A stretch of 64,000 bases of DNA, taken from positions 548,056-612,055 of the forward strand of contig CAZVQU010000001.1 of assembly GCA_964629655.1 (NCBI GenBank), written 5' to 3'. Position 1 is the first letter of the stretch. Each line of letters begins with the position of its first letter. Below, piece after piece: positions 2,831 to 36,258 of this stretch. Position numbers and translations under genes: made by a program. The DNA is from an uncultured Planctomycetia bacterium. Its GTDB lineage: Bacteria; Omnitrophota; Gorgyraeia; Duberdicusellales; 4484-171. The notes below the pieces were generated by a model. That model made no database searches. It was not told the DNA's origin and saw nothing but the letters and a program-made list of their open reading frames with translations.

Positions 2831-2964
2831 ACTTAAAGGCTACATAATATATACCTTATCTGAGATATTTTGTCAAGACAAATCTACGAAAGTAGATCTG
2901 TCTTTATCCTGAGGCTGCCAAGCTGAAGGATCTTATCGTTAAAACCCTTATTTTGCAGGCTCTT

Positions 2965-3639: not shown

Positions 3640-3654
3640 TTTGTTTTGTGTTTA

Positions 3655-5960: not shown

Positions 5961-5988
5961 TTCTTAGGCCCCTATAAAAATAAAAAAG

Positions 5989-6063
5989 CGACCCCAGCCG
6001 GATTTGAACCGGCGCCGTCGCCGTGAAAGGGCGATGTCCTGGACCGGGCTAGACGATGGGGTC
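5989..6063 (-). tRNA. tRNA-Glu (anticodon TTC)
   Basis: The reverse complement folds as a cloverleaf: acceptor stem GACCCCA / TGGGGTC, anticodon loop CUUUCAC, T-loop GGTTCAAATCC. CCA is not encoded. Confidence 0.8.
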
Positions 6064-6158
6064 GAAAGTGTTTCTATTTTAGATTATACAGTTAATTTGT
6101 CAATAAACTTTCTCGGGTCGCTAACCACGCTACTAATCAACATCTAACAGGCTACCCT

Positions 6159-12351: not shown

Positions 12352-12429
12352 AGTAGTAATAGTAGTATACTCTGTGAATTCTGTTGAGAGGCCACTATTG
12401 TATCAAAACCAAAGACAAAAACAAACAAT

Positions 12430-12438
12430 TTATTCACA
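12430..12438. promoter_or_regulatory. DnaA-box-like 9-mer (TTATTCACA) in the dnaA-dnaN intergenic region
   Basis: One mismatch from the TTATCCACA consensus. Confidence 0.4.
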
Positions 12439-12446
12439 AAAATTCT

Positions 12447-17616: not shown

Positions 17617-17652
17617 AATCTCGTAAGTTTTTAGAAGGAGGTTTGTAAGCGA

Positions 17653-18159
17653 ATGGAAAACGAAGCTACCTTAGTTATTATTAAACCCGATGGGCTGAAA
17701 AAATCCCTTACCGGGAATATCTTAAGTAGGCTTTCTGAGGGTAAGTTGAAAATAATCGGAGCCAAAGTAATAAAAGTAGATATTAAGTTAGCCCATGAAC
17801 ACTATCACCATCTTCAGAAAGAACCGTTTTATCCGGAATTAACCAAATATATTACCGGCCAGCTTCACGGCGAGAACAGGGTTATGGCCCTTGTCTATTG
17901 GGGTGAGGATGCTATAAAAAAAGTTAGAGCTATAGCCGGCGAGACTAATCCTGAGCAAGCCGATCCGATAAGTATAAGGGGTGCCTACGGAAGGATTCTA
18001 ACAACTGGTTTGTTTGAGAATGCAATTCATGCCTCAAGCAGCATCGAGGAAGCTGAGAGGGAGATAAAACTTTGGTTTGAGCCAGATGAGATTGTTTATG
18101 CGCTTTATCCCTCAAAAAAAGTAGCCGAAGGAAATGGCAAAAAGGAGATTTGGGCATGA
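17653..18159 (+). CDS. ndk: nucleoside diphosphate kinase
   Basis: Starts TLVIIKPDG... The NDK active-site His region is present. 168 aa, with a C-terminal extension. Confidence 0.8.
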   Translation: MENEATLVIIKPDGLKKSLTGNILSRLSEGKLKIIGAKVIKVDIKLAHEHYHHLQKEPFYPELTKYITGQLHGENRVMALVYWGEDAIKKVRAIAGETNPEQADPISIRGAYGRILTTGLFENAIHASSSIEEAEREIKLWFEPDEIVYALYPSKKVAEGNGKKEIWA

Positions 18160-20161: not shown

Positions 20162-20240
20162 GGGGTTGTCGATTAGCCTGGCTTAAGTCCCCTGCCTGTC
20201 ACGCAGGTGATCGTGGGTTCAAATCCCATCGACCCCGCCA
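20162..20240 (+). tRNA. tRNA-Asp (GTC)
   Basis: Acceptor GGGGTTG / CGACCCC, anticodon stem-loop CCTGC-CTGTCAC-GCAGG, T-loop GGGTTCAAATCCC, CCA encoded. The D-loop is slightly long. Confidence 0.75.
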
Positions 20241-21911
20241 TTGAAACCAATTCGAACTCTTGTTCTTCTCATCGAGAAGGGCAAGAGTTTTTGCTTTTAT
20301 ATGGGCCAGATAATAAGGCTTAAACTTCCCTTCCTGAGCATTAACCACCGAATAGAAGTCATTATCAGAATCCAACACAGGCTCAAGTGCTATCGGGGAT
20401 AGGAGCTCTTTTAAGGCAAGCCCTGCAGAGGTGGCATTCTTGCTAAGGGTTTCACGTAAACGTCTTAAACGGTGTCTTATCCATTCTGCAGGAGGGGATT
20501 TAAAGGTGTTCTGCTTCTGGAATTCTAGAGATTTTATCTCTTCTGTTAACAACTCAAATCTCGATTCACAGTGCTTTAATGCCTCGGATACGGCCTTTGA
20601 AAAGTTACCTAACTTAATGTAATTAAGGTAGTTTTGCATCTCCAAAGAAAGCTTATCATATTGGGCTCTTTTCTTTTTAGTAGTCTCAGGGTTGGTGTTT
20701 AATCTTTTTGCTATTTCGGTTTCTAGATTCTTGTAAATGTAGCTTACATTATCGGGAGTTAAGATCTTTTCTTGCAATGCAGCGAGGATGATTTTTTCTA
20801 TGCGTTTACGGGATACCAGTAATTTATTAGTACAGGTTTTACGCCGAAAATTATAACAACCGTAGTAACCGCCGCCTTTTCCGCTGACAAGAACAATTGG
20901 CCCGTTACAACAGTGGCATTTCATGGTTCTTGAAAAAAGATGAGTTGGGGCACAATGGACATAACTTCTTTGTTTTTGGCCGCTCGCTCTTGCCTTTTGA
21001 GATAGAGGATAGGCGCCTACCATTTTGGACCATCTTTCTTGGGTTTTATTCCAAACATCCTGCTCAATAATTATTAAATCTTTTCTGGGTGTGGATAAAT
21101 GTTCTTTTTCGGGGCGTGAAACAATTTTCTTTTTTCCGGTTAAAGGATCTCTTACAGTTTTGGTTGTTTTCCATATCCATATACCGATATACTTTTTGTT
21201 CTGTAAGATTCTACGTAAACTGGAAATATTCCAACCGCCGGAAAGGCCGCGTTTAGTAGGGATTTTGCCCTCATTGAGGGCTGCCGCTATTTTCCGTAAG
21301 CTTTTACCTCTGGAGAATTCAGTGAATATTCTTTTTACTATATCGGCTTGCTCAGGATTTATTTTATGAACCATCCCATCATGTTTTGCTTCGCCTCTTT
21401 TACCAACCCTTAGCTCGCCGACCGGTTCGGTAAAATAACCAAATACATTCTCGCCTACACTAAAGCCGCGGATTTTCTGGCCTTCTAGTCCACGCATAGT
21501 TTTCTTTTTGAGGTCATCAAGATAAAGCTCATTCATTAGCCCGCGCAGATGAATGCCTAATTTTGAATTATCGTCATCAGTAGAAATACCGTCGGAAACA
21601 GAAGTAATCTTTATCTGCAGATAGTTGAATTTTAGAACCAAAGTTAACATCTGATGGTTGCTTCGCGATATCCGAGATAAGTCGTCTACAATTACAGTAT
21701 CAAATTCTTTATTCTCAGCAGCTTTCTCCAAAGCCTGCAACCCGGGCCGGTCAACAATAGAACCCGAGATTGCCTCATCAATGTAGATATGCTCATCTTC
21801 CACAAGAAAGTTATTTTTGCTGGCATAGTCTTTGCATACGCGTATTTGATCGTCAATACTCCTAGCGCTTTGGTTTTCAGAGGAGTAGCGGGCATATATG
21901 GCAACTTTCAT
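20199..21911 (-). mobile_element. large serine recombinase (resolvase catalytic domain + recombinase domain + zinc-ribbon/coiled-coil); its 3' end overlaps the tRNA-Asp 3' end
   Basis: 570 aa. The N-terminus MKVAIYARYSSENQ...DDQ is the serine-recombinase catalytic motif. A C-terminal Cys cluster (C..C..CYNFRRKTC) follows. The last ~14 codons are encoded inside tRNA-Asp on the opposite strand. Confidence 0.85.
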
Positions 21912-22305: not shown

Positions 22306-22530
22306 TTGTCAAGCAAAAAAATAGGAGTTTTTATGCTCTCAGCAAACATTAAAAAACTAAGAAAAAGACACCACTTGTCTCAAGAACAACTCGCCCAAAA
22401 GGCAGGAATTACCTACAGCACTCTTATCAAGATAGAATCCGGGTCAAACAAAAACCCAACCCTGGAGACCTTAACAAAACTGGCTACTGTATTTAAAATC
22501 AAGATAGATGAGTTGGTGAAAAAGTTATAA
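22306..22530 (+). CDS. XRE-family helix-turn-helix transcriptional regulator
   Basis: 74 aa with the HTH_XRE core LSQEQLAQKAGITYSTLIKIESG. Confidence 0.7.
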   Translation: MSSKKIGVFMLSANIKKLRKRHHLSQEQLAQKAGITYSTLIKIESGSNKNPTLETLTKLATVFKIKIDELVKKL

Positions 22531-22559: not shown

Positions 22560-23195
22560 ATGAAAAGGATAAGTTCAGAAAGGGAGTTGTTAAGTAAGTG
22601 TTTGTCGAATGACAAGCATGCATGGGATGAATTTGTCCAGCGTTATACTAAATTAATTTTTAGCTTAATATATCGAACCCTTGAGTTCAAAGGGTATCGG
22701 ATAGAAAAGGATCTTGTGAGCGATCTTCACCAAGATGTTTTTTTGTCCGTCCTAAAGGATGATTATGCGAAATTAAGAAGATTCAAATGGAAGAATGGAT
22801 GTTCTCTGGCTACGTGGATTGGTGTCATAACAAGAAATTTAGTCTTAAATTTCATTAGAAGCAATTCAAAACAAAAGTATCTAACAAAATCTCTCGATGA
22901 ATCTTTTGGCAATGAAAACGAAAAACAGGCAACGCTTTTAGATGTAATCAAAAACCCCGCCCCAAACGCTAAAGAGGTAATGAATGAATCTGAAATGATT
23001 GATTTGCTCAATGCTTCTATAGAAAAACTTGAGATTACAGAAAGAGTAATCCTCGATTTATTCTATGCTCAAACCTTACCGCTTGAAGAAATAGGGAGAG
23101 TTTTAAACAAATCTGAAGATGCTGTATTTATGCAGAAAAAGAGAGTTCTTGCAAAATTACAAGAAATAATGAAAAAAGGCGTTGGTTTTAGATAA
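22560..23195 (+). CDS. ECF (sigma-70 family) RNA polymerase sigma factor
   Basis: 211 aa with sigma region 2 (DEFVQRYTKLIFSLIYR...DLHQDVFLSVL) and region 4 HTH (LPLEEIGRVLNKSEDAVFMQKKRVLAKL). Confidence 0.8.
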   Translation: MKRISSERELLSKCLSNDKHAWDEFVQRYTKLIFSLIYRTLEFKGYRIEKDLVSDLHQDVFLSVLKDDYAKLRRFKWKNGCSLATWIGVITRNLVLNFIRSNSKQKYLTKSLDESFGNENEKQATLLDVIKNPAPNAKEVMNESEMIDLLNASIEKLEITERVILDLFYAQTLPLEEIGRVLNKSEDAVFMQKKRVLAKLQEIMKKGVGFR

Positions 23196-23226: not shown

Positions 23227-23952
23227 ATGAAAAATAAATTTGAATCTATTCTGAAAAAAGTTCTTAATGCTGTGAAAAAACGAAAAAATAGCAATACTGG
23301 AAAAAGGTGCTTAACTGACGAAGATTTAACCGTCATTGTTGAGGGAAAAACTTCAGAGGTTGAACGGGATAAGGTATTTAGCCATATCCTATCTTGCCAA
23401 AATTGCGCTTTGTTACTGAAAGAGCATTTATTAATCATGGGTGATTTAGATAAAAAAGGCATGCTAGAGACTCCTCAAGAATTAATTCAAGCCGCGATGG
23501 ATCTAGTCGGTCCAGGTATAGCATCTAATATGTTAGAAGTTGTTTTAAATCTTAAGGAGAAGGTAATAGAATTAGTAAAAGCCACGGGTGATGTTCTAAT
23601 CGGGCCGGAATTAATCCCTGTGCCGGTTTTGAGAAGCCAAGGGAAAGACGACAAATTCGAGAACAAGGTGAAAATTGTCAAAGCTTTTGATAATGTTTTG
23701 ATAGAAGTAGTTGTAGAGAGAAAAAAGCCAAATATCTGTGATATCGAGTTAAGATTAACGGAAAAGGATTTGAAGAGAAAGGCAGAAGGTTTACGAGTTA
23801 CGTTAATGAAAGACAATAAAGAAATAGAGTCATCTTTGATAGATGAAGGTAAAATTATCTTTAGGGAAATTAAACCAGATAGATATAAAATTTCTATCAT
23901 GAAAGAGGGGAAACAACTAGGCGCAGTCGATATTTCGATGAATTTAACTTGA
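23227..23952 (+). CDS. putative zinc-finger (ZAS, zf-HC2) anti-sigma factor, soluble
   Basis: 241 aa with the H-x3-C-x2-C motif (HILSCQNC) near the N-terminus and no TM segment. It lies immediately downstream of the ECF sigma gene and 12 nt upstream of the CHAT gene. Confidence 0.55.
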   Translation: MKNKFESILKKVLNAVKKRKNSNTGKRCLTDEDLTVIVEGKTSEVERDKVFSHILSCQNCALLLKEHLLIMGDLDKKGMLETPQELIQAAMDLVGPGIASNMLEVVLNLKEKVIELVKATGDVLIGPELIPVPVLRSQGKDDKFENKVKIVKAFDNVLIEVVVERKKPNICDIELRLTEKDLKRKAEGLRVTLMKDNKEIESSLIDEGKIIFREIKPDRYKISIMKEGKQLGAVDISMNLT

Positions 23953-23964: not shown

Positions 23965-26900
23965 ATGGTTACTTTAGTCGTTGAAATTAGCAAAGAAGGT
24001 GACCGTCTGAAAATGGGTGCTTTTGAAAGGTCAAAAGGCCTAGATGTAACTTTAAAACACTATAACGATTGTTACGTCTCAGATGAAAAAATTGAAAATC
24101 TTTGTGGAGAGATAACCTACCTTTTTAATAAGGCAAATCGACAAGGAAAAGTAGGCGAAAACTTTGCTAGTGATTTAAAGAAGATTTGCCGAACCCTTTT
24201 CGACCAACTACTTACCTTTGAAGTCAAGAAAGCAATAAAGAACACTGAGGCAAAGTTCTTACTGATCTCTATTGATGAAAAATTAGTTCAGATTCCTTGG
24301 GAGCTTCTTCATGATGGAGATGAGTTTTTATGTATCCGTTTTGCAATGGGTAGAAGCGTAAAGACTAAGCAAAAGAATTATGGAAGTCGCTACCGTAGCG
24401 TGAGCAGTCCCACAAAAATGTTGATTGTTGCAAATCCGACAGGAGATTTGAATTCTGCTTACGAAGAAGGTATATATATCCGCAATGAATTAGATAAAAG
24501 AAAAGGTAAGGTAAGAGTATTTTCAAAGACAGAAGATGTAAGTATTGACTTTGTAAGAAAGAATATCAGAGATTACGATATCTTTCATTTTGCTGGCCAT
24601 GCGGAATATAATTCAATAAATCCTTCTGAAAGTGGCTGGATTTTAAAAGATGGTAAATTTACTGCTAAGGAAATCGTAGAACTCGGAGCAACATCCCCTT
24701 TACCCTCAATAATTTTTTCTAATGCTTGTCAATCTGGCAAGACAACCGAGTGGAAAGTAGGTAAAGAATTCGAAGATGAAATATACGGGTTAGCTAATGC
24801 TTTTCTTCTAGCAGGGATTCGTCATTATATAGGCACATTTTGGAGAGTTTTGGACGAACCGTGTTTGTGCTTTGCTAACGAATTTTATAAGAATGTTACC
24901 GATGGCTTACCAATTGGAGAAGCTATACGATTATCTAGAATACAACTTATTAATAAGTATGGATATTCTTCAATTGTCTGGTCAAGCTATATGCTTTATG
25001 GAGATCCCGCAATCAATCTGTTCTTTGTCTCGACAGTCAAAAAACCATTAAAAGAGAGAATTTTTCAAAGGCAGATCATAATTTTGTCTATAATATTGGG
25101 TTCAATTATTGGGACAGGCTTATCAGGGTTTCTTCTCTATCGAAACTATTTCTCACGGCCAATTGCTCAAGAAAGCCCCGCGTGGGCACATAGAAACATT
25201 GTTTTGATTATGCCTTTCGAAAACTTGAACAGGGATAAAGAAACTGATTGGATGGGTCTAGGGATTGCTAATGTCGTGGCTACAAAATTAAACAAATTAG
25301 ACAAAATAAATGTAGTCGATAGGTTTCAGGCTGAGCTAATATGGAAAGAAATTAAAAAGGCCGACTACGTTGATAAAGAAAGCGCTTTGAAGATAGCTAA
25401 GATTTTAGGTGCAGACCGGATTATTCTTGGATCGTTTCAGAAAATTGATGATGATATACGAATATCAGCTCAGCTGTTCAATGTTAAAGACGATTCCTTG
25501 ATTGGGTCAGTTGATGCCAGTGATTCATATAGCAATTTCTTTTCTTTGGAAGATACCGTGGCTTTAAGCATAGGGGATAAATTGAATATTAAAATAAGTA
25601 AGCGGGAAAGATCTGAGTTGAGCAAGTTTTTGCCTACAGAAAACATTAGTGCATTTGAATTCTTAACCAAATCTATCTCGGCGTTTACTGAGAGAGATAT
25701 AAATAAAGCAGTAGATTTCTGCAAAAAAGCTCTAGAATTAGACCCTAATTATATTCAAGCAAATACAAATATGGGGTTATTGTATGATTCATTAGGCAAT
25801 TTAGACCTGGCTAAAGTTTATTACGAGGAAGCATTAGAATTAACCAAGAAGAGCGAAGATAAAAATTTATTTGTAACGGCCTATTTTAATTTAGGTAAAC
25901 TTCTTGGACGAACAGGTCAATGGAAGGAAGGAATGGAGCTTCAAAGAAAGGCACTAAAAATTGCAGGAAATCTAAGTAATCAGCAAGTTTATGCTTCGAT
26001 TTTGTACAATATAGGACTATCTTATATTGCAAATAACGAGTTTAATGAGGCTAAAAAGTCATTATTTGAAAGCAAAGCTATTTACGAGACATTGAATAAT
26101 CAATTTGGTTTGGCAGCTATTCATCTGGGATTAGGAATCTACTACTCTTACAACCAAGAAGCAGATTTTGATAAGGCTGAGAAGTATTATGATGAAGCAA
26201 TAAGGATTTCCGAGAATCTAAACTCTAAAGAAGGACTTGCTAAAATTTATTCTATTTTGGGTGGACATTATCATACAAGAGGAGAGTGGGAGAAAGGCAG
26301 TATTTACTTTGTTAAATCTTTGAAGGTGAGTCAAGAAATTAATGACAGTTGGTCAGAGAATCTAGCCTATTGTGGTCTTGCTAAGAGCTATGAAGAAAAA
26401 GGAGAGTTTGGTAATGCTCTAGAATATTACAAAAAAAGTCTAAAACTGACCGAAGAGGCAGGTAATCGCACGGGACACAAAAATACTCTATATTCGATAA
26501 GTTCGTTATATTTAAGACAATTGCGTAATGATATGGGATTAAAGTATTTGAATATGTTAGTTGAAGAGGCAAAAAAAGATAAAGATGAACGTAACCAGAT
26601 ATTAGGGTTACGGTGGATAGCTAGTACTTATTATTCAATGGGAAGATACGAGAAAGCTATGGAAGGATATAATAAAGCTTTAACTTTTAATGAGGCGCTC
26701 AATAGCGACAGAAATAGTTTAATGCAGATATATCTTGGTTTAGGAAAATGTGTTGGTCAATTAGGTAATAATACCGAAAGCGAAAAGTATTTTGAATTAG
26801 CTAAAAAAGAAGTACTTGGTGTGAAGGAATATATTACACTGGGATATATTTATCAACAAATTGGAACATTTTATGAGAATAAAGGCAGAATGGATAGAGC

Positions 26901-29694
26901 GATACGAAATTACATGAAAGCAAGCGAAAGTTTAACCAAGGACAAGCTAAATAACTATTCTAAGTTTCAATTAGTGGGTATATATTTTGGGTTAGCCGAA
27001 TGTTATAAAAAGCAGAATAATAAAGCTAAAGCCTTTCAGTATTACAAAAAAGCCTTGCCTTTTGCCGAAGAAACCAGTAGCCCAATCATTAATACCATTA
27101 AAAGTAATTTATATTTTATCGATAAGGGGAAAGAGGAGCAAGCCGATGAGATAAAAAACATTGAAGCAAAAAAATTATATATCCAGGCTAGAAATAATTT
27201 TTTCAATGGTGAGCACGATAAAGCCTTGGTGGCGATTAAAAAAGCTTACAAGAAAGAGCCATTCAGTAGCAATATCGTTAGTTTGATTTGTTTAACTTAT
27301 GAGGATATGGGTCGATATGATGAGGCTACTGATATTCATTTAAAATATATAAAATTGTTAGACAAAAAAGAAGACATTTCTGAAATTATTGCCCAATATT
27401 CTTGGATAGGGGGAAATTATCGTAAGATTGGGAAATTAGATAAAGCAAAAACCTATTATGATAAAGCTCTAGGATTAGCCAAGAATGCTGGGAGCAAAGA
27501 AGATATAGGTTTAGTTTATGCTGATTATGGTATGGTGATGGAGGCCTTGGGACAAGATGAAAGAGCTATAGAGTTTGCGAATAAAGCGATTGAATTTTAC
27601 AAGGGGGCTTCAAAAGTAAATTATTTAACTAATGCATATCACGTATTGAGCCTTGTTTATTCGAAACAAGGAGATACGAATAAAGCTTTAGAGTATGCTC
27701 ACTTAAATCTTAAAATTAAAGAAGAGTCAGGTAGCGGGGACATGGAAAGAAGTTACATAAATTTAGGGTCACTCTATAAAGATATAGATATCGTCAAGTC
27801 TTTGGAATACTTAAATAAAGCTATAAGTTCTCTTGAGAAGAAAGGGCAGCTATCTCTTTTAGGCAATGCGTACCATGAGACTGGCTCAGTATATGAAGGA
27901 ATGAAACAAAGTAATAAAGCTTTGGAGTTTTACAATAAAAGTCTTGCGCTTTCTGATAAGTTGAATGATGCATGGACGACATATGCGAACTATCTGGCGT
28001 TAGAGCATCTATACTTTAAGACAAAAGAATATAAACTTTCAGAAGAATTTAGAGAAAAACTTATAAATCTAGCTAAAGAATTAGGACGAGAGATAGACTT
28101 AGGCATAATTTACGGGGCTATTGGGGATAGGTATATTGATGAAGATTTTGACAAAGGAGAAAAGTACTTTTTAATGAGTATAGAGATTTTAGAAGGATAC
28201 AAGAACAACGAATATAAAAATAAGGAGATTTTGAAAACACTAGCTATTGATTATGATACTTTGGGCATGTTATTTGGCAAAAGGAAAAATTGGGATAAAG
28301 CAATAATGAATTTTCAAAAAGCTATTGATATTGCAGAGTCACACAATGTTTTAGATAAATCTTTGCTTGGAAATACGTATTATTGGTTCGGTGTTTGCTA
28401 TCATTATAAGAATGATTTTAAAAAGGCGTTAGAATATTACAGAAAAGCTAGACCCGCTCTTTTAGCAGCCGAAGAAGGTAGAAGCCTTATAAAGAAACTA
28501 GATAATCAAATAAACATATTAGAGACTTATCTTTCTCTTGCAGGGGAAGTTCAAGATTTTGATGGAATTTTAAAAGCAGCTGAGGATTATCATAGAGAAG
28601 ATAAGTGGGAATTAGCACTTGAAAATTACAAAAAGGCATTAGCGATTGCTGTAACGCTTAAAGATGGTGCATTAAAGGATTCAGTCAACAAAAAAATAGA
28701 GTGGATACATAAGCAGATAAACAGAATAGAGACCTATTTTAAAGAAGTGGAAGTATCCAAAAAAGCGAAACCAGCAGGCTACCTAGAAAGCAAGGCCATT
28801 CTATATATGAGACAAGGCAAATATAATGTGGCGTTAGATAATTTCAAAAAAGCTTTAAAAATCTATGAGAGTGTGGATTATAAAGAGCAGATGAATCTTA
28901 GCAAAATGCGGATAGGATTTGTTTATCTAACCAAAAATGATTTTAAAAATGCCGAAAAACTATTCAAGGAAAGCATGAATACATTTAAAGATTTGGAAGA
29001 TAAAGAATATATTGGCTTGGTTCATGGAGCATTTGGTATTTTATTTGAGAAAAAAGGGAAATATAATCAATCTGAAAAAGAATACCATATAGCGATAGAT
29101 TTGCTTAAAGAAAGTGAGTCGTCAAAAACATACGATGTAGCATATTATAACTGTTTGGGATCCGTATATTATAAAAAGCAAAATTATAATAAATCCTTGG
29201 AAAGCTACCAAATGGCTCTTGAATTAGGGAAAGAGATAGAGGATCCAAACTCGATTAGTTTAACCTATGCTATGATGGCATATGTAAGCTTTTTGAATGG
29301 CTCTTTTGAAAAAGCTAATAATTTTGCTGATAATTCCTTAGTTGTAGCGGAAAGACTAGATGACATGGAACTTATTTGTATTGCTAGTTTAGTGAAAGGA
29401 AAAGCTTTCATGAGGCAAAGTGATTATGAGATGGCCACCCAGTTTTTTGATAAAGCTATTAATAGTGCTAATTCTTGCAATAAAAATAAATTAAAGTTGG
29501 TTTCGTATTCGAATATGGCTTTACTTGCCAAAAAAGAGAAGGACGGAAATTCATATAAGAAATTACTTAGTTTTATTAAGGAAATGGGTAGTTTTGATTG
29601 TATCAAGGGTGACGAAATACTAGATAACAGGTTGGAGATACTATTTAAGGAAATAATTGAAGAAAAGGACTTTTTTAAGCGAATTTGGTTATGA
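23965..29694 (+). CDS. giant CHAT-domain (caspase-like) protease with one TM helix, a TolB-N-like domain and a ~30-repeat TPR array
   Basis: 1909 aa. CHAT motifs IPWELLHDG, the His FHFAGHAEYN and the Cys IIFSNACQSG are present. A TM helix lies around aa 365-392. FENLNRDKETDWMGLGIANVV... resembles TolB-N-like sensor domains. The remaining ~1400 aa are TPR-like repeats. Confidence 0.85.
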   Translation: MVTLVVEISKEGDRLKMGAFERSKGLDVTLKHYNDCYVSDEKIENLCGEITYLFNKANRQGKVGENFASDLKKICRTLFDQLLTFEVKKAIKNTEAKFLLISIDEKLVQIPWELLHDGDEFLCIRFAMGRSVKTKQKNYGSRYRSVSSPTKMLIVANPTGDLNSAYEEGIYIRNELDKRKGKVRVFSKTEDVSIDFVRKNIRDYDIFHFAGHAEYNSINPSESGWILKDGKFTAKEIVELGATSPLPSIIFSNACQSGKTTEWKVGKEFEDEIYGLANAFLLAGIRHYIGTFWRVLDEPCLCFANEFYKNVTDGLPIGEAIRLSRIQLINKYGYSSIVWSSYMLYGDPAINLFFVSTVKKPLKERIFQRQIIILSIILGSIIGTGLSGFLLYRNYFSRPIAQESPAWAHRNIVLIMPFENLNRDKETDWMGLGIANVVATKLNKLDKINVVDRFQAELIWKEIKKADYVDKESALKIAKILGADRIILGSFQKIDDDIRISAQLFNVKDDSLIGSVDASDSYSNFFSLEDTVALSIGDKLNIKISKRERSELSKFLPTENISAFEFLTKSISAFTERDINKAVDFCKKALELDPNYIQANTNMGLLYDSLGNLDLAKVYYEEALELTKKSEDKNLFVTAYFNLGKLLGRTGQWKEGMELQRKALKIAGNLSNQQVYASILYNIGLSYIANNEFNEAKKSLFESKAIYETLNNQFGLAAIHLGLGIYYSYNQEADFDKAEKYYDEAIRISENLNSKEGLAKIYSILGGHYHTRGEWEKGSIYFVKSLKVSQEINDSWSENLAYCGLAKSYEEKGEFGNALEYYKKSLKLTEEAGNRTGHKNTLYSISSLYLRQLRNDMGLKYLNMLVEEAKKDKDERNQILGLRWIASTYYSMGRYEKAMEGYNKALTFNEALNSDRNSLMQIYLGLGKCVGQLGNNTESEKYFELAKKEVLGVKEYITLGYIYQQIGTFYENKGRMDRAIRNYMKASESLTKDKLNNYSKFQLVGIYFGLAECYKKQNNKAKAFQYYKKALPFAEETSSPIINTIKSNLYFIDKGKEEQADEIKNIEAKKLYIQARNNFFNGEHDKALVAIKKAYKKEPFSSNIVSLICLTYEDMGRYDEATDIHLKYIKLLDKKEDISEIIAQYSWIGGNYRKIGKLDKAKTYYDKALGLAKNAGSKEDIGLVYADYGMVMEALGQDERAIEFANKAIEFYKGASKVNYLTNAYHVLSLVYSKQGDTNKALEYAHLNLKIKEESGSGDMERSYINLGSLYKDIDIVKSLEYLNKAISSLEKKGQLSLLGNAYHETGSVYEGMKQSNKALEFYNKSLALSDKLNDAWTTYANYLALEHLYFKTKEYKLSEEFREKLINLAKELGREIDLGIIYGAIGDRYIDEDFDKGEKYFLMSIEILEGYKNNEYKNKEILKTLAIDYDTLGMLFGKRKNWDKAIMNFQKAIDIAESHNVLDKSLLGNTYYWFGVCYHYKNDFKKALEYYRKARPALLAAEEGRSLIKKLDNQINILETYLSLAGEVQDFDGILKAAEDYHREDKWELALENYKKALAIAVTLKDGALKDSVNKKIEWIHKQINRIETYFKEVEVSKKAKPAGYLESKAILYMRQGKYNVALDNFKKALKIYESVDYKEQMNLSKMRIGFVYLTKNDFKNAEKLFKESMNTFKDLEDKEYIGLVHGAFGILFEKKGKYNQSEKEYHIAIDLLKESESSKTYDVAYYNCLGSVYYKKQNYNKSLESYQMALELGKEIEDPNSISLTYAMMAYVSFLNGSFEKANNFADNSLVVAERLDDMELICIASLVKGKAFMRQSDYEMATQFFDKAINSANSCNKNKLKLVSYSNMALLAKKEKDGNSYKKLLSFIKEMGSFDCIKGDEILDNRLEILFKEIIEEKDFFKRIWL

Positions 29695-29739
29695 TAATTT
29701 GATATAAATCATTTTTGTACAAGGAGTTAGGTACTTATA

Positions 29740-29770
29740 GGGCACATACTAAATGTGCCCTATTTTTTTG
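29740..29770 (+). terminator. intrinsic terminator after the CHAT gene
   Basis: Hairpin GGGCACAT-actaa-ATGTGCCC followed by TATTTTTTT. Confidence 0.7.
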
Positions 29771-29820: not shown

Positions 29821-29988
29821 ATGAAAAAGCTAATGTTTTCAATAGCAATTTTGATTGGGTGCATGAGTGTAGTTAATAATGCTTTTGCTAGAGTAGACCG
29901 CGATACCAATAGGTATATTTGTAATAGATGGGAAAGCTCACAAGAAGCTAGTGGTTTAAGTGATTTGTTAAAAGGAGGTTTAAGATGA
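29821..29988 (+). CDS. small secreted peptide 1 (signal peptide ending NAFA|R)
   Basis: MKKLMFSIAILIGCMSVVNNAFARVDRDTNRYICNRWESSQEASGLSDLLKGGLR. AAGGAGGTGA SD lies 7 nt upstream. This is the trimmed start of ORF 29755..29988. Confidence 0.5.
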   Translation: MKKLMFSIAILIGCMSVVNNAFARVDRDTNRYICNRWESSQEASGLSDLLKGGLR

Positions 29989-30136
29989 GAAGAGTAGTTA
30001 TTAGCTTGATGGTTGCTTTGGTGATTATGGGAAGTTCAGTATTAGCCTATGCACACTCAGGAAGGACAAGGACTGACAGTTGGGGGCGAACGGGACACAC
30101 CAACAGGTCAACAGGAGTATGGGAGACACATTATTA
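29985..30136 (+). CDS. small secreted peptide 2
   Basis: MRRVVISLMVALVIMGSSVLAYAHSGRTRTDSWGRTGHTNRSTGVWETHY, 50 aa, with signal peptide and AAGGAGG SD. It is below the ORF-track cutoff. Confidence 0.4.
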
Positions 30137-30180
30137 ATACTTTTATGGATAATTCTAAAGAGTTAAAGAGGAGGTACAAA

Positions 30181-30372
30181 ATGAAAAAATTTATAATTTC
30201 CTTAATAGCAATAGGCATAATTTTTAGTTCAGCTGGTAATGCATTCGCACGGATTAAGTATATTAACGGCTATTACAGAAGTAGTGGAACCTACGTTAAT
30301 GGACATTACAGAGATGTATCTAACGACGGGAATCCTTACAATAACGCAAATTATCTTGGCTATAATTGGTAA
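30181..30372 (+). CDS. small secreted Tyr/Asn/Gly-rich peptide 3 (signal peptide ending NAFA|R)
   Basis: MKKFIISLIAIGIIFSSAGNAFARIKYINGYYRSSGTYVNGHYRDVSNDGNPYNNANYLGYNW. GAGGAGGT SD lies upstream. This is the trimmed start of ORF 30049..30372. Confidence 0.5.
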   Translation: MKKFIISLIAIGIIFSSAGNAFARIKYINGYYRSSGTYVNGHYRDVSNDGNPYNNANYLGYNW

Positions 30373-30556: not shown

Positions 30557-31819
30557 ATGAAGTATAAGTTTCTATTAATTTTATCATTTTTCTTATTAGC
30601 TATACCAGTGTCAGCCATGATTAAAGTTAAAACTGGCATAGAAAAGCTTTACGAAAGAGCTTCGGAAGACCATAGAAATCAAAGGCTCATTAAGGCAATT
30701 AAGGAGGCTATCAAGGAAGAGCCCGATAATTACAAGCACTACTATGAGCTTGCTTATGTTTATGAATATATCGGAGATTACGATAAGCAGTTAGGATTAT
30801 TCAAACAGATAATAAAATATTACCCGAAAGGTTACCCCGATTTGGATATCCATTATGGCAATCTTGCAATGTCTTACATTCGTGCTGGAATGTTAGATAA
30901 AGCTAAGTTATTGTTAGATAAAGCACTGTTACTTAATCCTAAAAATTCCTACAATCATTGGCATTTGTTAACTTGTTATACGTTAAAGGGGCTTTACGAA
31001 GAAGCAGCTTTGGAAATGAAAATATTAAGTGATCTTAATCCAGGGGATGATTGTTATTATGATATTTATAGGTACATTTTAGATAAAGACGAAGATTTAG
31101 AAAAGATGGCGAACCTTTTTAGAAAGGCCGTGAAAGTTAACCCCAACAGTCATCTATCTCGTAGAATGCTGGCGATAGCTTTACGAAATAATCCAGATAG
31201 TTTTTTACAAAATCTTCCTATAGTGATGAAAGAATTTAAAAAAGCTTTAAAACTGAACCCTAAATATTTACCTACATATATCAGCATAGCAGATACATAT
31301 ATGTTGCACGCTGTGAAAGTGGGAAATAAAGCGTATTTCAAAAAAGCTCTAAAATGGTTTAATAAAGCCCAAAAAATAGATCCAAACAACATAAGATTAT
31401 TTTATGCAATGGGGAATTGTTATGTATATATGGGAGAGTACGACAAAGGAATAGAAAAACTTGAATATGTAATAAGCAGAGGCCTTAGAGATGTTGGCCC
31501 GGTAGAGGTATTAGCCAAAGCTTACAATAATAAAGCATATGACCTATACATAAAAGGTGAGGACTTAGAAGAAGGGTTAGAAATGATTAACAAGGCAATT
31601 AGGTTAGTGCCTGACAATGGAATTATTTTAGGTACAAAAGCAGAGATTTTATATAAAATGGAAAGGCACGAAGAGGCCTATGAATATATCCAGAGAGCTT
31701 TGGTGTTGGAACCTAACCATCTAGAAATGAAACAAGATTTAGAAAACATTGAAAATGCATTAAAAAGAGCTAAAATAGAGCCAAATAGTGGAAAAGGGGA
31801 CGGTTCTATTTTAAAATAA
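30557..31819 (+). CDS. secreted TPR-repeat protein
   Basis: 420 aa with signal peptide MKYKFLLILSFFLLAIPVSA and multiple TPR-like repeats. Confidence 0.65.
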   Translation: MKYKFLLILSFFLLAIPVSAMIKVKTGIEKLYERASEDHRNQRLIKAIKEAIKEEPDNYKHYYELAYVYEYIGDYDKQLGLFKQIIKYYPKGYPDLDIHYGNLAMSYIRAGMLDKAKLLLDKALLLNPKNSYNHWHLLTCYTLKGLYEEAALEMKILSDLNPGDDCYYDIYRYILDKDEDLEKMANLFRKAVKVNPNSHLSRRMLAIALRNNPDSFLQNLPIVMKEFKKALKLNPKYLPTYISIADTYMLHAVKVGNKAYFKKALKWFNKAQKIDPNNIRLFYAMGNCYVYMGEYDKGIEKLEYVISRGLRDVGPVEVLAKAYNNKAYDLYIKGEDLEEGLEMINKAIRLVPDNGIILGTKAEILYKMERHEEAYEYIQRALVLEPNHLEMKQDLENIENALKRAKIEPNSGKGDGSILK

Positions 31820-31828: not shown

Positions 31829-34081
31829 GTGTCCCCGGAATTCGCAAAAATTAAGGCAAGAGAAATTATGAACCGCAGAATGAAATGGGTAAAGACAAAG
31901 GTTGAAAACACAGCCATGAAAGCGATGAAAGTATTTGCTGGGGTTGTGTTTCTAATGAAAAGAATTGAGGCATGGGTTTCTAATGTCATTGTTTCTTTGC
32001 TTGGTATTGCAGTAGCTGCTTTTTTGTTTTTGCCAAAAAATCAGAACTTGCTTGGTCACATAGAAAGTCCCAATGCAATTTTCCTAGCTATAGGTGGGCT
32101 GATTGGAACGGTACTCGCGCTCGTTTTTTCTTTATCGATTATTCCTATCCAGAACGCTGCCGCTAACCTTACTCAATCTGTAATCAAGCTCTACAGCAGA
32201 GATAGATTATCAAAATACATTTTTTCTACACTTTCAATTTTTTGTTTATCATCATTCCTTATGGTTTTTGGCAACAGCATGGGGATAAGCAAGCCAATTT
32301 TGCTGACGGTTGATTTCCTATTCATAGCTTTTTCTTTTGATTTATTGCGGCTTTATCATCGGCACGTTATTAGCTTATTAGAGTCAGACAAAGGAATTAA
32401 TAAGTTGAGGGACAGTATTAAGAAAAAGATTTCTTGGTTTCAAGGAAAGATTTCTTTTTTGGCGAAAATAAGAAGTCTTTTTTTAACAAAAGAAGACAAG
32501 AAAAAATTACCGTTAAATCAACTTGAGTCATTTTTGTATATTAATTTATCTCACGTGGTTTATGGCTTTAGACTGTTAGTCAATGAGTTAGCCGAAATCG
32601 CCCTAAAGGCCGTCGCAAGAAGTGAGGTGTCCCGAGCGCAGCTGGCAATTTTCGCGATGTCTGACGTTGCTTGTCATTACGTAACTGTAAGAAAAAATAA
32701 CTTAAGAATTCAAGGTGAACCAGGTGTAGCTGGCATGCTCGGTGTAAAAGGAAGCGATATAGACGATCTCCTTAGCCCGATATACGAGCATTTCAAAGAT
32801 ATTAGTCGAAGCGCAGTATCTTCCAGGAATGAAACCACATCTTTACATTCAATAAGAGCGCTATCTCAACTCGCTATACATTTAACGACGTTAGAGAGCC
32901 CGGCCTACAGAAAACATTCTGTACCTTTGACCCATATGTCTATTGCATATATGGGAGTATGCATTGAAGCCGCACAGAGGCAGGGCTTGGATGATGTTCC
33001 GCATCAAGGCGCAGGTAATTTGCTAGAAATAACGAAGAATGCCCCAAAGAATGTTGACATTTGTGATATTTACTTACCTGTTTTAAATGAGTTAAATAAA
33101 ATAGCTTTAGCGTTTCTTGTATCCAACAAGGATACTCTTCTGAACAGTTGCATTGAAAAGATAATGACCGTATCTCACCATGCCGTTTATAATAAGCATT
33201 TCAGAGCAGCTGATGTAATCGGCGATATTACAAAGAAATTAGAAGTGCTGTTACCTATCGCTTTGTCTTATGAAAAAATCTATGGTTCAAAGTTTTTAGG
33301 CCAACCTTTAACTCCTGCATATGATCTTTCAAATCAAAGATCGTTAGGATATTTAATTGCAAGGGCAACAGAGATGATTAAAAAAGATGAAAAAAGAACC
33401 CATGTTAATCCATACGGAAACTTCATTGATATAAATGAAAAAATACAGGGGCATCTTTATGATATTGGAAAGAACAATGAATTTGGTGATTCGTTCATAT
33501 TATGGCATATTCTGCATACGATAAAGCACATAGCAAAGATTTTTATACAGCTGGTGGAAAAACCCGTAACACATGATCCAGCTTTTCTCGAGAAACTCAC
33601 AGAATGCTTTTCGCGGTATTGTAGTTTCTTTTGGTTGGCATTTGACGAAAAGAAAACAGTAAATTACACACAAGCACAAGAAGCATGTGATATATCTGGC
33701 TATATAGGCTTAAACTTCTTTAGACTTAAAAAACAAGATATTGTGAAGTTCTGTATAGATAATATAGCTACAATAGCCAGTTCTTATAAAAATATCAGCG
33801 AAAAAGAAGAGCGGTATAATGAGTTTAATATAGCAGATTTATTAATGCCTTTATGGCATCTATATTTGGCTGCCGAGCACGCTGGTGGTACTGAAACTAC
33901 TAAATTGATCAACGAAAAGCTTAAAGAATTCGATGTTTTCAAAAACAGCTCAAAAGAAGCGGAGGCTTTTGAAAATAGAAAAAGGCATTTGCAAAGAGAT
34001 TTTAGCGAAGGCCTACATTGGTCTCGAAATGATAAATCAATTGGAATATTAAGAGAATTGCTGGACAGAAAGCCTGTATAA
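31829..34081 (+). CDS. large polytopic membrane protein of unknown function
   Basis: 750 aa with about 5 N-terminal TM helices and a ~500-aa soluble domain with no motif I recognise. Confidence 0.5.
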   Translation: MSPEFAKIKAREIMNRRMKWVKTKVENTAMKAMKVFAGVVFLMKRIEAWVSNVIVSLLGIAVAAFLFLPKNQNLLGHIESPNAIFLAIGGLIGTVLALVFSLSIIPIQNAAANLTQSVIKLYSRDRLSKYIFSTLSIFCLSSFLMVFGNSMGISKPILLTVDFLFIAFSFDLLRLYHRHVISLLESDKGINKLRDSIKKKISWFQGKISFLAKIRSLFLTKEDKKKLPLNQLESFLYINLSHVVYGFRLLVNELAEIALKAVARSEVSRAQLAIFAMSDVACHYVTVRKNNLRIQGEPGVAGMLGVKGSDIDDLLSPIYEHFKDISRSAVSSRNETTSLHSIRALSQLAIHLTTLESPAYRKHSVPLTHMSIAYMGVCIEAAQRQGLDDVPHQGAGNLLEITKNAPKNVDICDIYLPVLNELNKIALAFLVSNKDTLLNSCIEKIMTVSHHAVYNKHFRAADVIGDITKKLEVLLPIALSYEKIYGSKFLGQPLTPAYDLSNQRSLGYLIARATEMIKKDEKRTHVNPYGNFIDINEKIQGHLYDIGKNNEFGDSFILWHILHTIKHIAKIFIQLVEKPVTHDPAFLEKLTECFSRYCSFFWLAFDEKKTVNYTQAQEACDISGYIGLNFFRLKKQDIVKFCIDNIATIASSYKNISEKEERYNEFNIADLLMPLWHLYLAAEHAGGTETTKLINEKLKEFDVFKNSSKEAEAFENRKRHLQRDFSEGLHWSRNDKSIGILRELLDRKPV

Positions 34082-34099: not shown

Positions 34100-34590
34100 C
34101 TAATTATCCAACTGAACTTTCTTTAGTGTAAATTTCAAAAACGCACTTTCTTAACCTTATCTTATATACCCGCGACTTAGGAATCCAGATTTTCTTGCCG
34201 TTGCAGTAAACCAAAATAGCCTTTTCGGTTTCGTGGAGGAAGCGGATTTTTAGCCATATTTTTCCTCGCCAAGGGTATTTTGGGTAATAACTGTAGAAAA
34301 ACTAAAACATATCTTATCCTTCCTTATAATTACAGGCTTTTCGCGCTGTTGTTTTGTCAATATTTAGGCTTTTGGCTATGCTTTCATAAGACATGCCTAG
34401 TAGACGTAATTGTTTGACTTTTTGGGATATTATCTGGTATAATGCTCTTCGCTTGGCGGGTTCAATAACAACGGTAACCTTGATTTCTGATAAGGTTCGA
34501 ATTGGTTGCAGGCGCGCCCGCCATTTGTTTTATTATCCAGCTGTTTTTCGAAAAAGAATAACTTTACGTGCATCCTTGACTTTTTATCGA
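34100..34590 (-). pseudogene. decayed transposase/IS remnant (HTH fragment, no intact ORF)
   Basis: Minus-strand frames give ...LRLLGMSYESIAKSLNIDKTTARKACNYKEG* (a transposase-type HTH) and ...KIPLARKNMAKNPLPPRNRKGYFGLLQRQENLDS*. They are interrupted by stops and frame changes. The ~500 bp has no plus-strand coding. Confidence 0.3.
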
Positions 34591-34596
34591 AATATA
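34562..34596 (+). repeat. 35-bp element TTACGTGCATCCTTGACTTTTTATCGAAATAT (copy 1), immediately upstream of the BTLCP-like gene
   Basis: Identical copy at 35266-35297 upstream of the BY-kinase gene. It contains a TTGACT -35-like hexamer. Confidence 0.55.
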
Positions 34597-34599
34597 AAA

Positions 34600-35250
34600 A
34601 TGCCAAAGAGACCAAACAAGCCCCAGGTTAAAACAATCCTGGCAAGACACTACAGAATCTTGGGGAAATCTTTTCTTCCCATCCTAGCACTTATTTTTTT
34701 CCTGAATCCCATTCTTGTTTTGGCGAATTCAGAATTTACCGGCAACATTGTTATTAGGCAGCAGACAAAAACCGCTAGCGGTATTTCAGTTTGCGGACCG
34801 GTTACAGTAGACCTGGATATTTTAGATATTATTTGCCGGGCGAACATAAAGTCCCTTGAAGATTACGAACGCTGGCTGCAAAAAACAGTTAAATACAAAG
34901 GGGACGATGGTGCTGATGTATGGTCCTTGCCGGAGGAAACCCTTACCAAAAAGTATGGCGATTGTGAAGATCTTGCGTTTTTAAATAAAGCGTTTCTCCA
35001 TGTATTGGGTTATCAGCCGAAAGTAATGGCCCTGGTAAGATTTGGCGATAAAAAAGGACATGCCATCTGCGTCTTTGAAGAAAACGGTTATTACCTATGG
35101 TTTGATAATACCAGTCTTAATAAAATTTCAGCAGCATCTATTGAAGAATTTTCCGATTATGTCCTCATGAATGGTTTGTATACTATGCTTTTTGAAATTA
35201 ATGTTGGCGACGAGAAGCAAAATATTCTAAGCGCTGGCATTATAGAATAG
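34600..35250 (+). CDS. secreted transglutaminase-like cysteine peptidase (BTLCP-like)
   Basis: MPKRPNKPQ... with signal/TM, Cys motif YGDCEDLAF and downstream His GHAICVF. The long N-terminal extension of ORF 34393..35250 is discounted. Confidence 0.55.
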   Translation: MPKRPNKPQVKTILARHYRILGKSFLPILALIFFLNPILVLANSEFTGNIVIRQQTKTASGISVCGPVTVDLDILDIICRANIKSLEDYERWLQKTVKYKGDDGADVWSLPEETLTKKYGDCEDLAFLNKAFLHVLGYQPKVMALVRFGDKKGHAICVFEENGYYLWFDNTSLNKISAASIEEFSDYVLMNGLYTMLFEINVGDEKQNILSAGIIE

Positions 35251-35319: not shown

Positions 35320-36258
35320 ATGATACCATCGCTAAAAGCCAGAAGGCTTACTACCAAAGAGCATCTCAACATAATCTTTTGCAGACACGCTATAACAATC
35401 ATAATCCTAACTATTAGTTTTGGGATTTTTGCTATTGTTGCCCAAAGGAATATTCCTTTAACGATTATGGCTGGGTTTGTCCTTAGTGTAGCCCTAAGCT
35501 ATTTTTTAGAGTCCCTAGACTCAACATTAAAGACCCCCGAAGATGTAGAGTGTTGTGCGCGGTTGCCTTACTTAGGATATATCCCTTCGATAGAAAAAGA
35601 ATTCAAGAACAGGAAGGATGCTGATTTAGTTTTTCACCATCGACACTATTCTTATGTAGCCGAAGCCTTCAGAAAGGCTAAGGAATCACTTCTTTCTGCT
35701 TGCTCGACAGGGAATCCGCTTAAGACTTTTGTGGTTAGTAGTTTTATACCTAAAGAGGGAAAGAGTTTTGTGGCTACAAATCTCGCTATAGCCTTTGCAG
35801 CTGCCGGAGAACCAACACTGTTGATTGATGGAGACATGCGAAAAGGAAGGCTCAATAAAATCTTTGATGTTGAGAATGTGAAAGGACTGTCTAATGCTCT
35901 GGCTGGAGCGTCTTCTTTCCAGGAAACAGTCACCCCGACAAAGATAAAGAACCTTTCGCTGCTACCTTTAGGCGCAGCGTCTCCTAACCCTATAGAGCTG
36001 TTAAAGGTAAATAAGATAAAAGCGATTCTGCAAGAAGCTGGAACAAAATTCAAAAAGATAATTATTGATGCCCCTCCGGTGCTAAGTGTTACTGACGCTC
36101 TTGTGTTTGGCAGTGAATGCGACGGGTTAGTTTTTGTGATTAAAGCCGGCGTGACTCCTTTCCAACACATTGTAGATGCCCAAAAAATGATTGGCGGCAG
36201 AGTAAAAATTCTAGGCGCACTATTAAATAGCGTAGATGTTAAAAAGAGCCGGCAGTAA
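35320..36258 (+). CDS. polysaccharide co-polymerase / BY-kinase family protein (CpsD/Wzc-like tyrosine kinase ATPase with N-terminal TM segments)
   Basis: Two TM helices followed by a ParA/MinD-like ATPase with Walker A FIPKEGKSFVATNLA, Walker A' LIDGDMRKG and Walker B IIIDAPP. Confidence 0.7.
   Translation: MIPSLKARRLTTKEHLNIIFCRHAITIIILTISFGIFAIVAQRNIPLTIMAGFVLSVALSYFLESLDSTLKTPEDVECCARLPYLGYIPSIEKEFKNRKDADLVFHHRHYSYVAEAFRKAKESLLSACSTGNPLKTFVVSSFIPKEGKSFVATNLAIAFAAAGEPTLLIDGDMRKGRLNKIFDVENVKGLSNALAGASSFQETVTPTKIKNLSLLPLGAASPNPIELLKVNKIKAILQEAGTKFKKIIIDAPPVLSVTDALVFGSECDGLVFVIKAGVTPFQHIVDAQKMIGGRVKILGALLNSVDVKKSRQ

Follow-up and report, generated by a model that had tools for sequence, protein, structure and literature searches.

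An Omnitrophota operon for an ECF sigma factor, a soluble zinc-type anti-sigma factor and a predicted membrane-spanning CHAT protease

Sigma factors of the extracytoplasmic function (ECF) type form the third main route by which bacteria pass signals across the membrane. Known ways of activating them are the cutting of membrane-spanning anti-sigma factors, partner switching, phosphorylation and the action of cytoplasmic proteases, the last of these linked to CRISPR. Here we analyse a locus that may extend this list. It lies in a 64,000-nt stretch of the genome of an uncultured Omnitrophota bacterium (GenBank assembly GCA_964629655.1, contig CAZVQU010000001.1, positions 548,056 to 612,055; hereafter the window, in whose own numbering coordinates are given). 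Three genes follow one another there: one for an ECF sigma factor, one for a soluble zinc-type anti-sigma (ZAS) factor and one for a 1909-aa protein that joins a caspase-like CHAT domain, a single predicted transmembrane (TM) helix, a domain resembling the N-terminal domain of TolB (TolB-N) and a long array of tetratricopeptide repeats (TPRs). Were a receptor to carry a caspase-like protease over the membrane and act with it on a soluble anti-sigma factor, this would be a further and distinct way of activating ECF sigma factors.

The closest described architecture is that of HetF from Anabaena/Nostoc, the founding CHAT protein, in which an N-terminal CHAT domain is followed by one predicted TM segment and by TPRs in the remainder (PMC8406250). 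HetF, of ~836 aa, acts together with FtsI during cell division; neither a TolB-N-like domain nor sigma and anti-sigma partners have been reported for it. Orthology with HetF was rejected, as the window protein scored 23.4 bits against a cut-off of 1200 with NCBIfam NF045509. The original prediction took CHAT-TPR fusions as known but had seen no description of this membrane-spanning order with the TolB-like insert. That holds for the TolB-like insert, on which we found no paper in a search for its occurrence in CHAT proteins, but not for the CHAT–TM–TPR order, which is that of HetF. The order is thus not new, and the architecture is common (795 sequence clusters, see below): undescribed rather than rare.

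In terms of function, there is a likeness to Craspase, a sensor-switched CHAT protease that cuts a soluble inhibitor holding an ECF-like sigma factor: Csx29 cuts Csx30 and thereby frees CASP-sigma (PMC10028731). Craspase occurs in the same kinds of organism (Desulfonema, Scalindua). Its sensor, however, is a cytoplasmic crRNA-guided Cas7-11 complex rather than a membrane receptor, its TPRs lie N-terminal to CHAT and on the same side, and Csx30 is not described as a ZAS protein. We rejected membership of the Csx29 type on account of the reversed domain order, the membrane span and the lack of cas genes, none of which were seen in the neighbourhood of the CHAT gene in the window. The DdvA/DdvS system of Myxococcus xanthus likewise combines an ECF sigma factor, a zinc anti-sigma module, TPRs, CHAT and one membrane span, and self-cleavage of DdvA, followed by RseP, has been proposed (PMC11506125). 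In DdvA, however, the membrane protein itself includes the anti-sigma module, and the TPR-CHAT part is periplasmic. The window protein has the opposite geometry, with CHAT inside, TPRs outside and a separate, soluble anti-sigma factor, and membership of the DdvA type was rejected on that separate anti-sigma factor and on the position of CHAT, N-terminal to the TM helix without a signal peptide. The CalpL/CalpT/CalpS system also has three parts, a protease, a soluble anti-sigma factor and a sigma factor resembling the ECF type: CalpL cuts CalpT and frees CalpS (10.1101/2024.05.08.593097). CalpL is described as a Lon-type SAVED protease of type III CRISPR, activated in the cytoplasm by cyclic oligoadenylate and without a membrane span.

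Other comparisons concern the receptor side. In DegS/RseP–RseA and PrsW/RasP–RsiW, a membrane-spanning anti-sigma factor is cut outside and within the membrane, whereas in the window a soluble anti-sigma factor stands beside a receptor that would carry the protease over the membrane. In BlaR1/BlaI and MecR1/MecI, a membrane receptor with an outside sensor has a cytoplasmic protease domain whose action leads to the loss of activity of a cytoplasmic inhibitor of transcription; these receptors differ in that they are non-homologous zinc metalloproteases with several spans, acting on a repressor. CadC-type and cyclase- or kinase-type receptors share the outside module, a TolB-N-like domain and helical repeats after one span, but their output is a DNA-binding domain, a cyclase or a kinase, and the TPR array in the window is far longer. 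Literature searches for such a trio led to DdvA, Craspase, CalpL and a note on ECF54. We found no paper in which a membrane CHAT protein is described together with a sigma factor and a soluble ZAS anti-sigma factor, although a tabulated list of ECF groups may already contain this sigma factor with CHAT as a neighbour. The nearest literature describes ECF54 sigma factors, with genes for CHAT proteins, subtilases and carboxypeptidases nearby (PMC8999054).

Domain architecture and predicted topology of the 1909-aa protein

The gene occupies positions 23965..29694 of the forward strand (ATG start, stop codon included) as a single open reading frame (ORF) of 1909 codons, as first described. The same 1909-aa protein is found on three further public contigs, and collinear orthologs of 1898-1914 aa are encoded in at least three other genomes; its architecture is therefore not a chance product. 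Four orthologs of 1909-1914 aa align collinearly with no more than 5 gap columns; for one of them, a later start gives a second call of 1898 aa. Their identity is highest in CHAT (73-78%), lower in the TolB-like domain (56-59%) and lowest in the TPRs (45-55%).

The CHAT domain (aa 73-347; 24181..25005) matches Pfam PF12770 over its full length (model positions 2-289 of 289) at E 8e-35, with 121 bits against a cut-off of 24. The putative catalytic residues are His212 in an FAGH motif (24598-24600) and Cys255 in an NAC motif (24727-24729). In an alignment with 18 diverse relatives, P111, E113, H212 and C255 are invariant and W112 nearly so. Thus, the CHAT motifs that the original prediction had read from the sequence at aa ~60-350 are real. 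By its family model and its catalytic pair, we assign the domain to the caspase-like clan CD family, and with H212 and C255 intact it is predicted to be an active peptidase. Against the PDB, a profile of the CHAT region found the Craspase CHAT chains weakly (E 0.03), and a profile from the whole N-terminal alignment gave results swamped by TPR columns.

The N-terminus is hydrophilic and contains no hydrophobic stretch, so that no signal peptide is present, in line with the earlier reading. Downstream of CHAT, the 19-residue Kyte-Doolittle mean peaks at 2.16 over aa 371-389, the runner-up in the whole protein being 1.34. This sole peak gives strong support to the hydrophobic helix expected at aa 365-392, which we place at aa ~370-392 (25072..25140; predicted N-in). 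The segment is a family trait. In ~105 of the 120 best homologs, a single hydrophobic segment is present, always located 17-67 residues past the conserved YGDP that ends CHAT, and there is none elsewhere in the protein.

Several observations point to a cytoplasmic protease and an extracytoplasmic C-terminal part. Across 203 members of the family, the 15 residues before the segment contain on average 3.8 Lys and Arg, compared with 2.1 in the 15 after it, and the count is higher on the N-terminal side in 163 members and lower in 19. Many members also contain a class III adenylate cyclase domain, which always lies N-terminal of CHAT and hence on the same side of the membrane; cyclases require cytoplasmic ATP. 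The C-terminal parts of relatives vary, and the modules found in them (CsgG/LpoB-like, discoidin, trypsin-like, DUF4384) are of kinds typical of the periplasm or the cell exterior. Helix position, positive-inside bias, cyclase side and periplasmic-type ectodomains therefore agree with the protease-in, TPR-out topology proposed before, and they support a cytoplasmic CHAT domain with the TolB-N-like domain and TPR array outside. We are highly confident of the architecture and topology as described here.

A contrary reading takes the segment as no membrane anchor, or the topology as reversed. The protein would then be soluble and cytoplasmic, a TPR-CHAT protease of the Csx29 or separase kind whose TPRs could gate the active site directly. 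In its favour, the solved TPR-CHAT proteases are all soluble with the exception of DdvA, and have their TPRs packed against CHAT. We judge this reading very improbable: the hydrophobicity of the sole segment, the retention of its position in hundreds of divergent relatives and the positive-inside bias speak for a membrane anchor, and periplasmic-type domains lie behind the segment, with the ATP-requiring cyclases always on the CHAT side. If the predicted topology is right, the TPR solenoid lies across the membrane from the active site and does not gate it directly, and coupling between the two must go via the membrane helix or oligomerisation.

The domain behind the helix (aa ~410-545; 25192..25599; predicted periplasmic) has a TolB-N/LpoB/CsgG-like alpha/beta fold. 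Searched as a single sequence over aa ~400-545, it matched Pfam FlgO (5e-4), LpoB (0.014) and DUF3280 weakly, all of them TolB-N-like families; FlgO at 20.3 bits (cut-off 22.6) and LpoB at 15.7 bits (cut-off 22.3) stayed below their cut-offs. Positions 25-118 of NCBIfam TolB also align to it, at E 0.1. A single-sequence search of the PDB gave only a chance match, and a word-indexed homolog search with this domain alone gave nothing at E<=1e-3. Profile and structure comparisons were more informative. With local phmmer searches, the domain links to the CsgG/LpoB-labelled C-terminal domains of family members at E-values down to 1e-12, which come from a small database, the family set itself. The homologous domains of relatives matched CsgG in 15 of 17 cases, LpoB in 15 of 17 and FlgO in 10 of 17 (E<=0.1; best values 1.3e-12, 2.2e-9 and 8e-9, respectively), and a 17-sequence profile found LpoB (4q6z) in the PDB at E 4.6e-4 and CsgG at E 0.05.

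An AlphaFold2 (AF2) model built from the 17-sequence alignment reached a predicted local distance difference test (pLDDT) score of 83.4 and a pTM of 0.74. Its top Foldseek matches in the PDB were the TolB N-domain (4r40; E 3e-8, prob 1.00, TMq 0.60) and LpoB (4q6l; E 1e-7, TMt 0.64), followed by GNA1162, FlgT, PelC and CsgG and by the periplasmic sensor domain of CadC (3ly7; E 1e-4). The top fold matches were all periplasmic proteins. The proposal of a TolB-N-like domain at aa 395-520, directly after the helix, is thereby upheld by profile and by fold. The likeness that had been drawn to the domain ahead of TPRs in membrane cyclases also has a counterpart, as positions 240-464 of the cyclase family TIGR04510 align with aa 406-629 at E 1e-9, taking in the TolB-N-like domain and the first TPRs. 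By sequence, the window copy stays just short of the cut-off in each Pfam family. We class it as a divergent TolB-N/LpoB-like domain, which belongs to the fold group and not to one named family.

The TPR array (aa ~565-1836; 25657..29472; predicted periplasmic) makes up most of the remainder. Pfam TPR families match throughout aa ~565-1860 (TPR_12 at E 3e-98 in 14 stretches, together with TPR_1, TPR_2, TPR_8 and others). To count units, we used a scoring matrix made from the protein's own repeats, with a threshold at the 99.9th percentile of shuffled sequence. Twenty-five units exceeded the threshold at a spacing of ~40 residues, and ~5 weaker units lay in register in the gaps, which makes the earlier estimate of about 30 TPRs a fair one. 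Nothing scored in aa 1-540 with this matrix. Since the orthologs are collinear with so few gap columns, the length of the array is fixed and does not drift as that of a loose repeat would.

Such giant versions (1237-1909 aa) are few and are confined to an Omnitrophota-like branch. In two genomes, a paralog of 867-873 aa with the same layout and fewer TPRs follows directly after the giant CHAT gene (L001/L002, 6001-8604; L003/L004, 6001-8622). At locus L006, the short form stands alone behind the sigma and anti-sigma genes, and in the window the giant form stands alone.

A conserved trio of sigma, anti-sigma and CHAT genes

The CHAT gene is the third and last gene of an operon. The first gene (22560..23195, forward strand) encodes a 211-aa protein that matches Pfam Sigma70_r2 and Sigma70_r4 and NCBIfam TIGR02937 (sigma70-ECF; 79.4 bits against a cut-off of 42.9). 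Regions 2 and 4 match and no region 3 was found by Pfam; on these family matches the protein is classed as an ECF (group IV) sigma factor. The second gene (23227..23952) encodes a 241-aa protein. All three genes lie on the same strand, with gaps of 31 nt and then 12 nt between them. A terminator-like hairpin at 29737..29763 (forward strand), 43 nt past the stop codon of the CHAT gene, has a stem of 11 pairs, 5 of them G-C, followed by TTTTTTT, and likely marks the end of the operon.

Taken alone, the 241-aa middle ORF matched no family, zf-HC2 reaching only 14 bits. Its syntenic homologs were more telling. C28, H53, C57 and C60, the last three forming an HxxxCxxC motif, are present in the window protein and common to these homologs. 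Among 46 of them, 43 have the HxxxCxxC motif, 34 match zf-HC2 (PF13490) and 45 have no TM-like segment. Against the PDB, the profile of the family found the anti-sigma factors RsiW (5wuq, 7e-5), RslA (3hug, 2e-4) and DdvA (8rlz, 2e-3; its N-terminal domain), as well as ChrR and RsrA. From the zinc motif, the zf-HC2 matches, the PDB matches and the absence of a membrane segment, we conclude that the protein is a soluble zinc-type anti-sigma factor, which would be expected to inhibit its sigma factor.

In layout, the anti-sigma factor consists of N-terminal zinc helices, a poorly conserved linker and a C-terminal beta-sandwich. The linker contains Arg136 (23632-23634), one of three invariant residues in the 46-sequence alignment. 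It is present in all 46 syntenic homologs, in a motif [VLIAF]-R-[GS] within an otherwise variable stretch; in the window protein the motif reads L135-R136-S137. The AF2 model of the anti-sigma factor (7 sequences) was poor overall, with a pLDDT of 56, and its beta-sandwich (aa 147-237) reached 70-88. Foldseek with this model found nothing at E<=1e-3, only generic beta-sandwiches. No recognisable sensor domain was found in the anti-sigma homologs. Since the protein is a ZAS module with neither a membrane segment nor a sensor domain, it would need input from elsewhere.

We then asked how widely the trio is kept. An exhaustive HMMER search with aa 1-395 found 795 cluster representatives (50% identity) at E<=1e-30. 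Among species-representative genomes, one for each of 185,579 species, there were 367 relatives, and the trio was counted around the best 80 of these 367 (L010-L089), in which ORFs were called and searched with our own profiles. Loci were counted as assessable if at least 800 nt (for the anti-sigma gene) or at least 1700 nt (for both genes) lay upstream. An anti-sigma-like ORF on the same strand, ending no more than 400 nt before the CHAT start, was present at 61 of 70 loci, and both sigma and anti-sigma genes lay upstream of the CHAT gene at 49 of 60. Five relatives whose neighbourhoods were inspected, including a Nitrospirae version with the order cyclase, CHAT, CsgG-like domain, had a sigma gene and a ~240-aa gene beside CHAT wherever the flank was long enough. 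At locus L005 the order is permuted (CHAT, sigma, anti-sigma) and the trio is still together.

Carriers belong to Omnitrophota, Nitrospirota/Thermodesulfovibrionia, Desulfobacterota, Binatia and a few other groups; Desulfonema magnum 4be13 (L068, NZ_CP061800.1 597675-610754) is a cultured one. The nearest named relative, with 73% identity over aa 1-395, is an Omnitrophota metagenome-assembled genome (L010). A trio relative with 60% identity (L011, CAZSVW010000119.1) sits on a 3.7-kb contig binned as 'Hydrothermarchaeota archaeon', which is probably a binning error, as all other carriers are bacteria.

The part of the CHAT protein behind the membrane is far less constant than the trio. In a rough census of ~340 members, 161 have a TM segment, a linker and a CsgG/LpoB-like domain without TPRs, 72 carry a different ectodomain, 16 have TPRs alone, in 11 the TPRs precede the domain and 15 share the order TM, domain, TPRs of the window protein; TPRs are undercounted elsewhere in the family, because the detector was trained on the window protein. 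Exchange of the outside domains thus goes along with a trio that persists in Omnitrophota, Nitrospirota and Desulfobacterota. A conserved protease, anti-sigma factor and sigma factor, together with an outward part that varies, are what one would expect of a receptor whose inputs can be exchanged and whose output is fixed. We consider it very likely that the sigma, anti-sigma and CHAT genes are functionally linked in some way.

A fourth neighbour recurs in Desulfobacterota and Nitrospirota. It is a 650-700 aa protein with the same CsgG/LpoB-like domain, encoded before the sigma gene or after the CHAT gene at 40 of the 80 loci L010-L089 and also at L009 (5254-7287), where it carries Glucodextran_B and Big_13 in addition. 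The window has no such gene.

A candidate route from an outside signal to the sigma factor

The original prediction had suggested a transmembrane signalling protease, a suggestion strengthened by the conserved operon that the gene shares with those for an ECF sigma factor and for a soluble anti-sigma factor. We lean, by a modest degree, towards a mechanism in which the CHAT protease cuts the anti-sigma factor upon an outside signal and so frees the sigma factor. The outside domains would read an extracytoplasmic ligand or the state of the envelope. The cytoplasmic protease would then become active, most simply by the bringing together of protease domains, as in other caspase-like enzymes, and would cut the anti-sigma factor in the linker between the sigma-binding zinc helices and the C-terminal beta-sandwich. 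The freed sigma factor would go on to direct transcription. Several clan CD proteases cleave after Arg, and Arg136 is invariant in a variable linker; for these two reasons we propose the bond after Arg136 as the candidate cut site. Craspase, CalpL and the self-cleavage proposed for DdvA are precedents. We infer the protease activity, the substrate, the cut site, the mode of activation, the nature of the signal and the regulon from the genes and their relatives.

A number of points weigh against this mechanism. Synteny cannot tell whether CHAT regulates the sigma factor or is regulated by it, a caveat that the ECF re-classification paper makes in general terms for the neighbours of ECF sigma genes. 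No sigma gene was detectable nearby at 11 of the 60 assessable loci, and no anti-sigma gene at 9 of the 70. When the regions upstream of 13 sigma genes were inspected by eye, no shared ECF-type promoter was seen, and several of the genes are preceded by housekeeping-like promoters. The 'linker' of the anti-sigma factor is defined by low model confidence and low conservation, and the topology is predicted from hydropathy, charge bias and domain logic. As to the cut site, Craspase reportedly cuts its substrate at a non-Arg site, so that CHAT proteases would not as a rule prefer Arg.

In a rival account, the CHAT protein does not activate the sigma factor but is made under its control or simply co-expressed with it. 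It would then act on other substrates or on itself, for example in envelope remodelling or in a HetF-like role at the division site, and control of the anti-sigma factor would come from elsewhere, for instance through oxidation of the zinc site, as in RsrA. The targets of ECF sigma factors are often encoded in the same operon, and the re-classification paper cautions that from context they are difficult to tell from regulators. The ZAS motif can act as a redox sensor, a property discussed for DdvA (PMC11506125); HetF, with its CHAT domain, one TM segment and TPRs, acts in division via FtsI and not through a sigma factor; and LpoB-, TolB- and FlgT-type domains usually touch envelope machines. 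What this account leaves unexplained is that the trio stays intact while the outside domains are swapped across phyla, that no other conserved cytoplasmic partner is at hand as a possible substrate, and that the anti-sigma factor has an invariant Arg without an obvious role. We consider it unlikely, without thinking it far-fetched.

Activation of the sigma factor by anti-sigma cleavage would, if true, allow an ECF sigma factor to be switched on without a membrane-spanning anti-sigma factor or intramembrane proteolysis, and would give bacterial caspase-like proteases a plain signalling role beyond defence and cell death. A broader proposal is that the family forms widespread 'receptor caspases', with interchangeable ectodomains and a CHAT domain that cuts a soluble zinc anti-sigma factor after Arg, the array in Omnitrophota possibly binding peptides. 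The ectodomains would include TolB-N/LpoB-like domains, TPR arrays, discoidin, DUF4384 and trypsin-like modules, and the signal may be an envelope state or a peptide. We put this generalisation forward tentatively, giving it rather less than an even chance. The family is large, it sits in phyla that are little studied and mostly uncultured, and its genes are labelled just 'CHAT domain-containing protein' or 'hypothetical'.

Small secreted peptides and genomic surroundings

Downstream of the hairpin, a small secreted protein of ~63 aa is encoded at 30181..30372 on the forward strand, counted from the start MKKFIISL within the ORF 30049-30372. It consists of a signal peptide and ~40 further residues. 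The mature peptide is IKYINGYYRSSGTYVNGHYRDVSNDGNPYNNANYLGYNW, its end being ...DGNPYNNANYLGYNW, and members of its family end in ...DGNPYNNANYLG[YL]N. The product matched no Pfam or NCBIfam family. Homologs lie directly downstream of the CHAT gene or genes at L001-L006, L010 and L023, for example at L001 9053-9244, L004 9068-9259, L005 9989-10222, L006 13039-13260, L010 ~12190-12400 and L023 ~8055. The protein thus accompanies every close relative of the Omnitrophota type, and both the Desulfobacterota and the Nitrospirota branch lack it. It may serve the TPR array as a ligand or be among the targets of the sigma factor, and its membership of the module is uncertain. If the peptide-binding proposal is true, the Omnitrophota unit would be a peptide-sensing circuit in which the giant TPR array binds secreted peptides encoded downstream.

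A second type of secreted peptide, with the pattern HSGRTDxxGGHYNRVDYGYPVYEYHG and YHYH-like, occurs in relatives (L001 8887-9039 and 9355-9597, L004 8896-9048, L006 12727-12876, L010 ~12100-12700). It is absent from the window, where an unrelated 55-aa secreted ORF takes the corresponding position (29821-29988).

Upstream of the sigma gene lie a large serine recombinase of 570 aa (20199-21911, reverse strand) and, directly adjacent, a small XRE-type helix-turn-helix gene (22306-22530, forward strand). This arrangement recurs on independent Logan contigs and may reflect a mobile or island context. The surroundings of two relatives are island-like as well. Locus L006 carries type I restriction-modification, NucS, PD-(D/E)XK, HNH, EVE and phage-type integrase genes (1-8568 and 17247-18050), the integrase lying downstream of the trio, and L005 carries NERD helicase, DUF2130 and DUF2779 genes (1-5886).

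Such surroundings bring up the possibility of an anti-phage or conflict system, in which the membrane CHAT protein would sense infection or envelope damage and trigger defence or death. The restriction-modification, HNH, NucS and EVE genes and the integrase around L006, the NERD helicase at L005 and the recombinase and XRE regulator directly upstream in the window would all fit, and CHAT proteases are found in Craspase, type III-B cascades, bacterial gasdermin systems and DdvA. We nevertheless rejected an assignment to any known defence system: searches with PADLOC-DB 2.0 gave only a marginal BovA match, on the CHAT region (E 2.7e-4), and none for the sigma or anti-sigma factors. Further, no CRISPR, gasdermin or toxin gene is conserved beside the trio, the conserved extra partners being periplasmic CsgG/LpoB-like proteins or small secreted peptides. 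We think a dedicated defence role improbable; it also overlaps with sigma factor release by the CHAT protease, as a defence output could pass through the sigma factor.

Beyond the small secreted protein, the forward strand of the window encodes a 420-aa TPR protein with a signal peptide (30557-31819), a 750-aa membrane protein with a weak DUF2254 match (31829-34081), a transglutaminase-like protein (34393-35250) and a P-loop protein with a weak AAA_31/CbiA-type match (ParA/MinD-like; 35320-36258).

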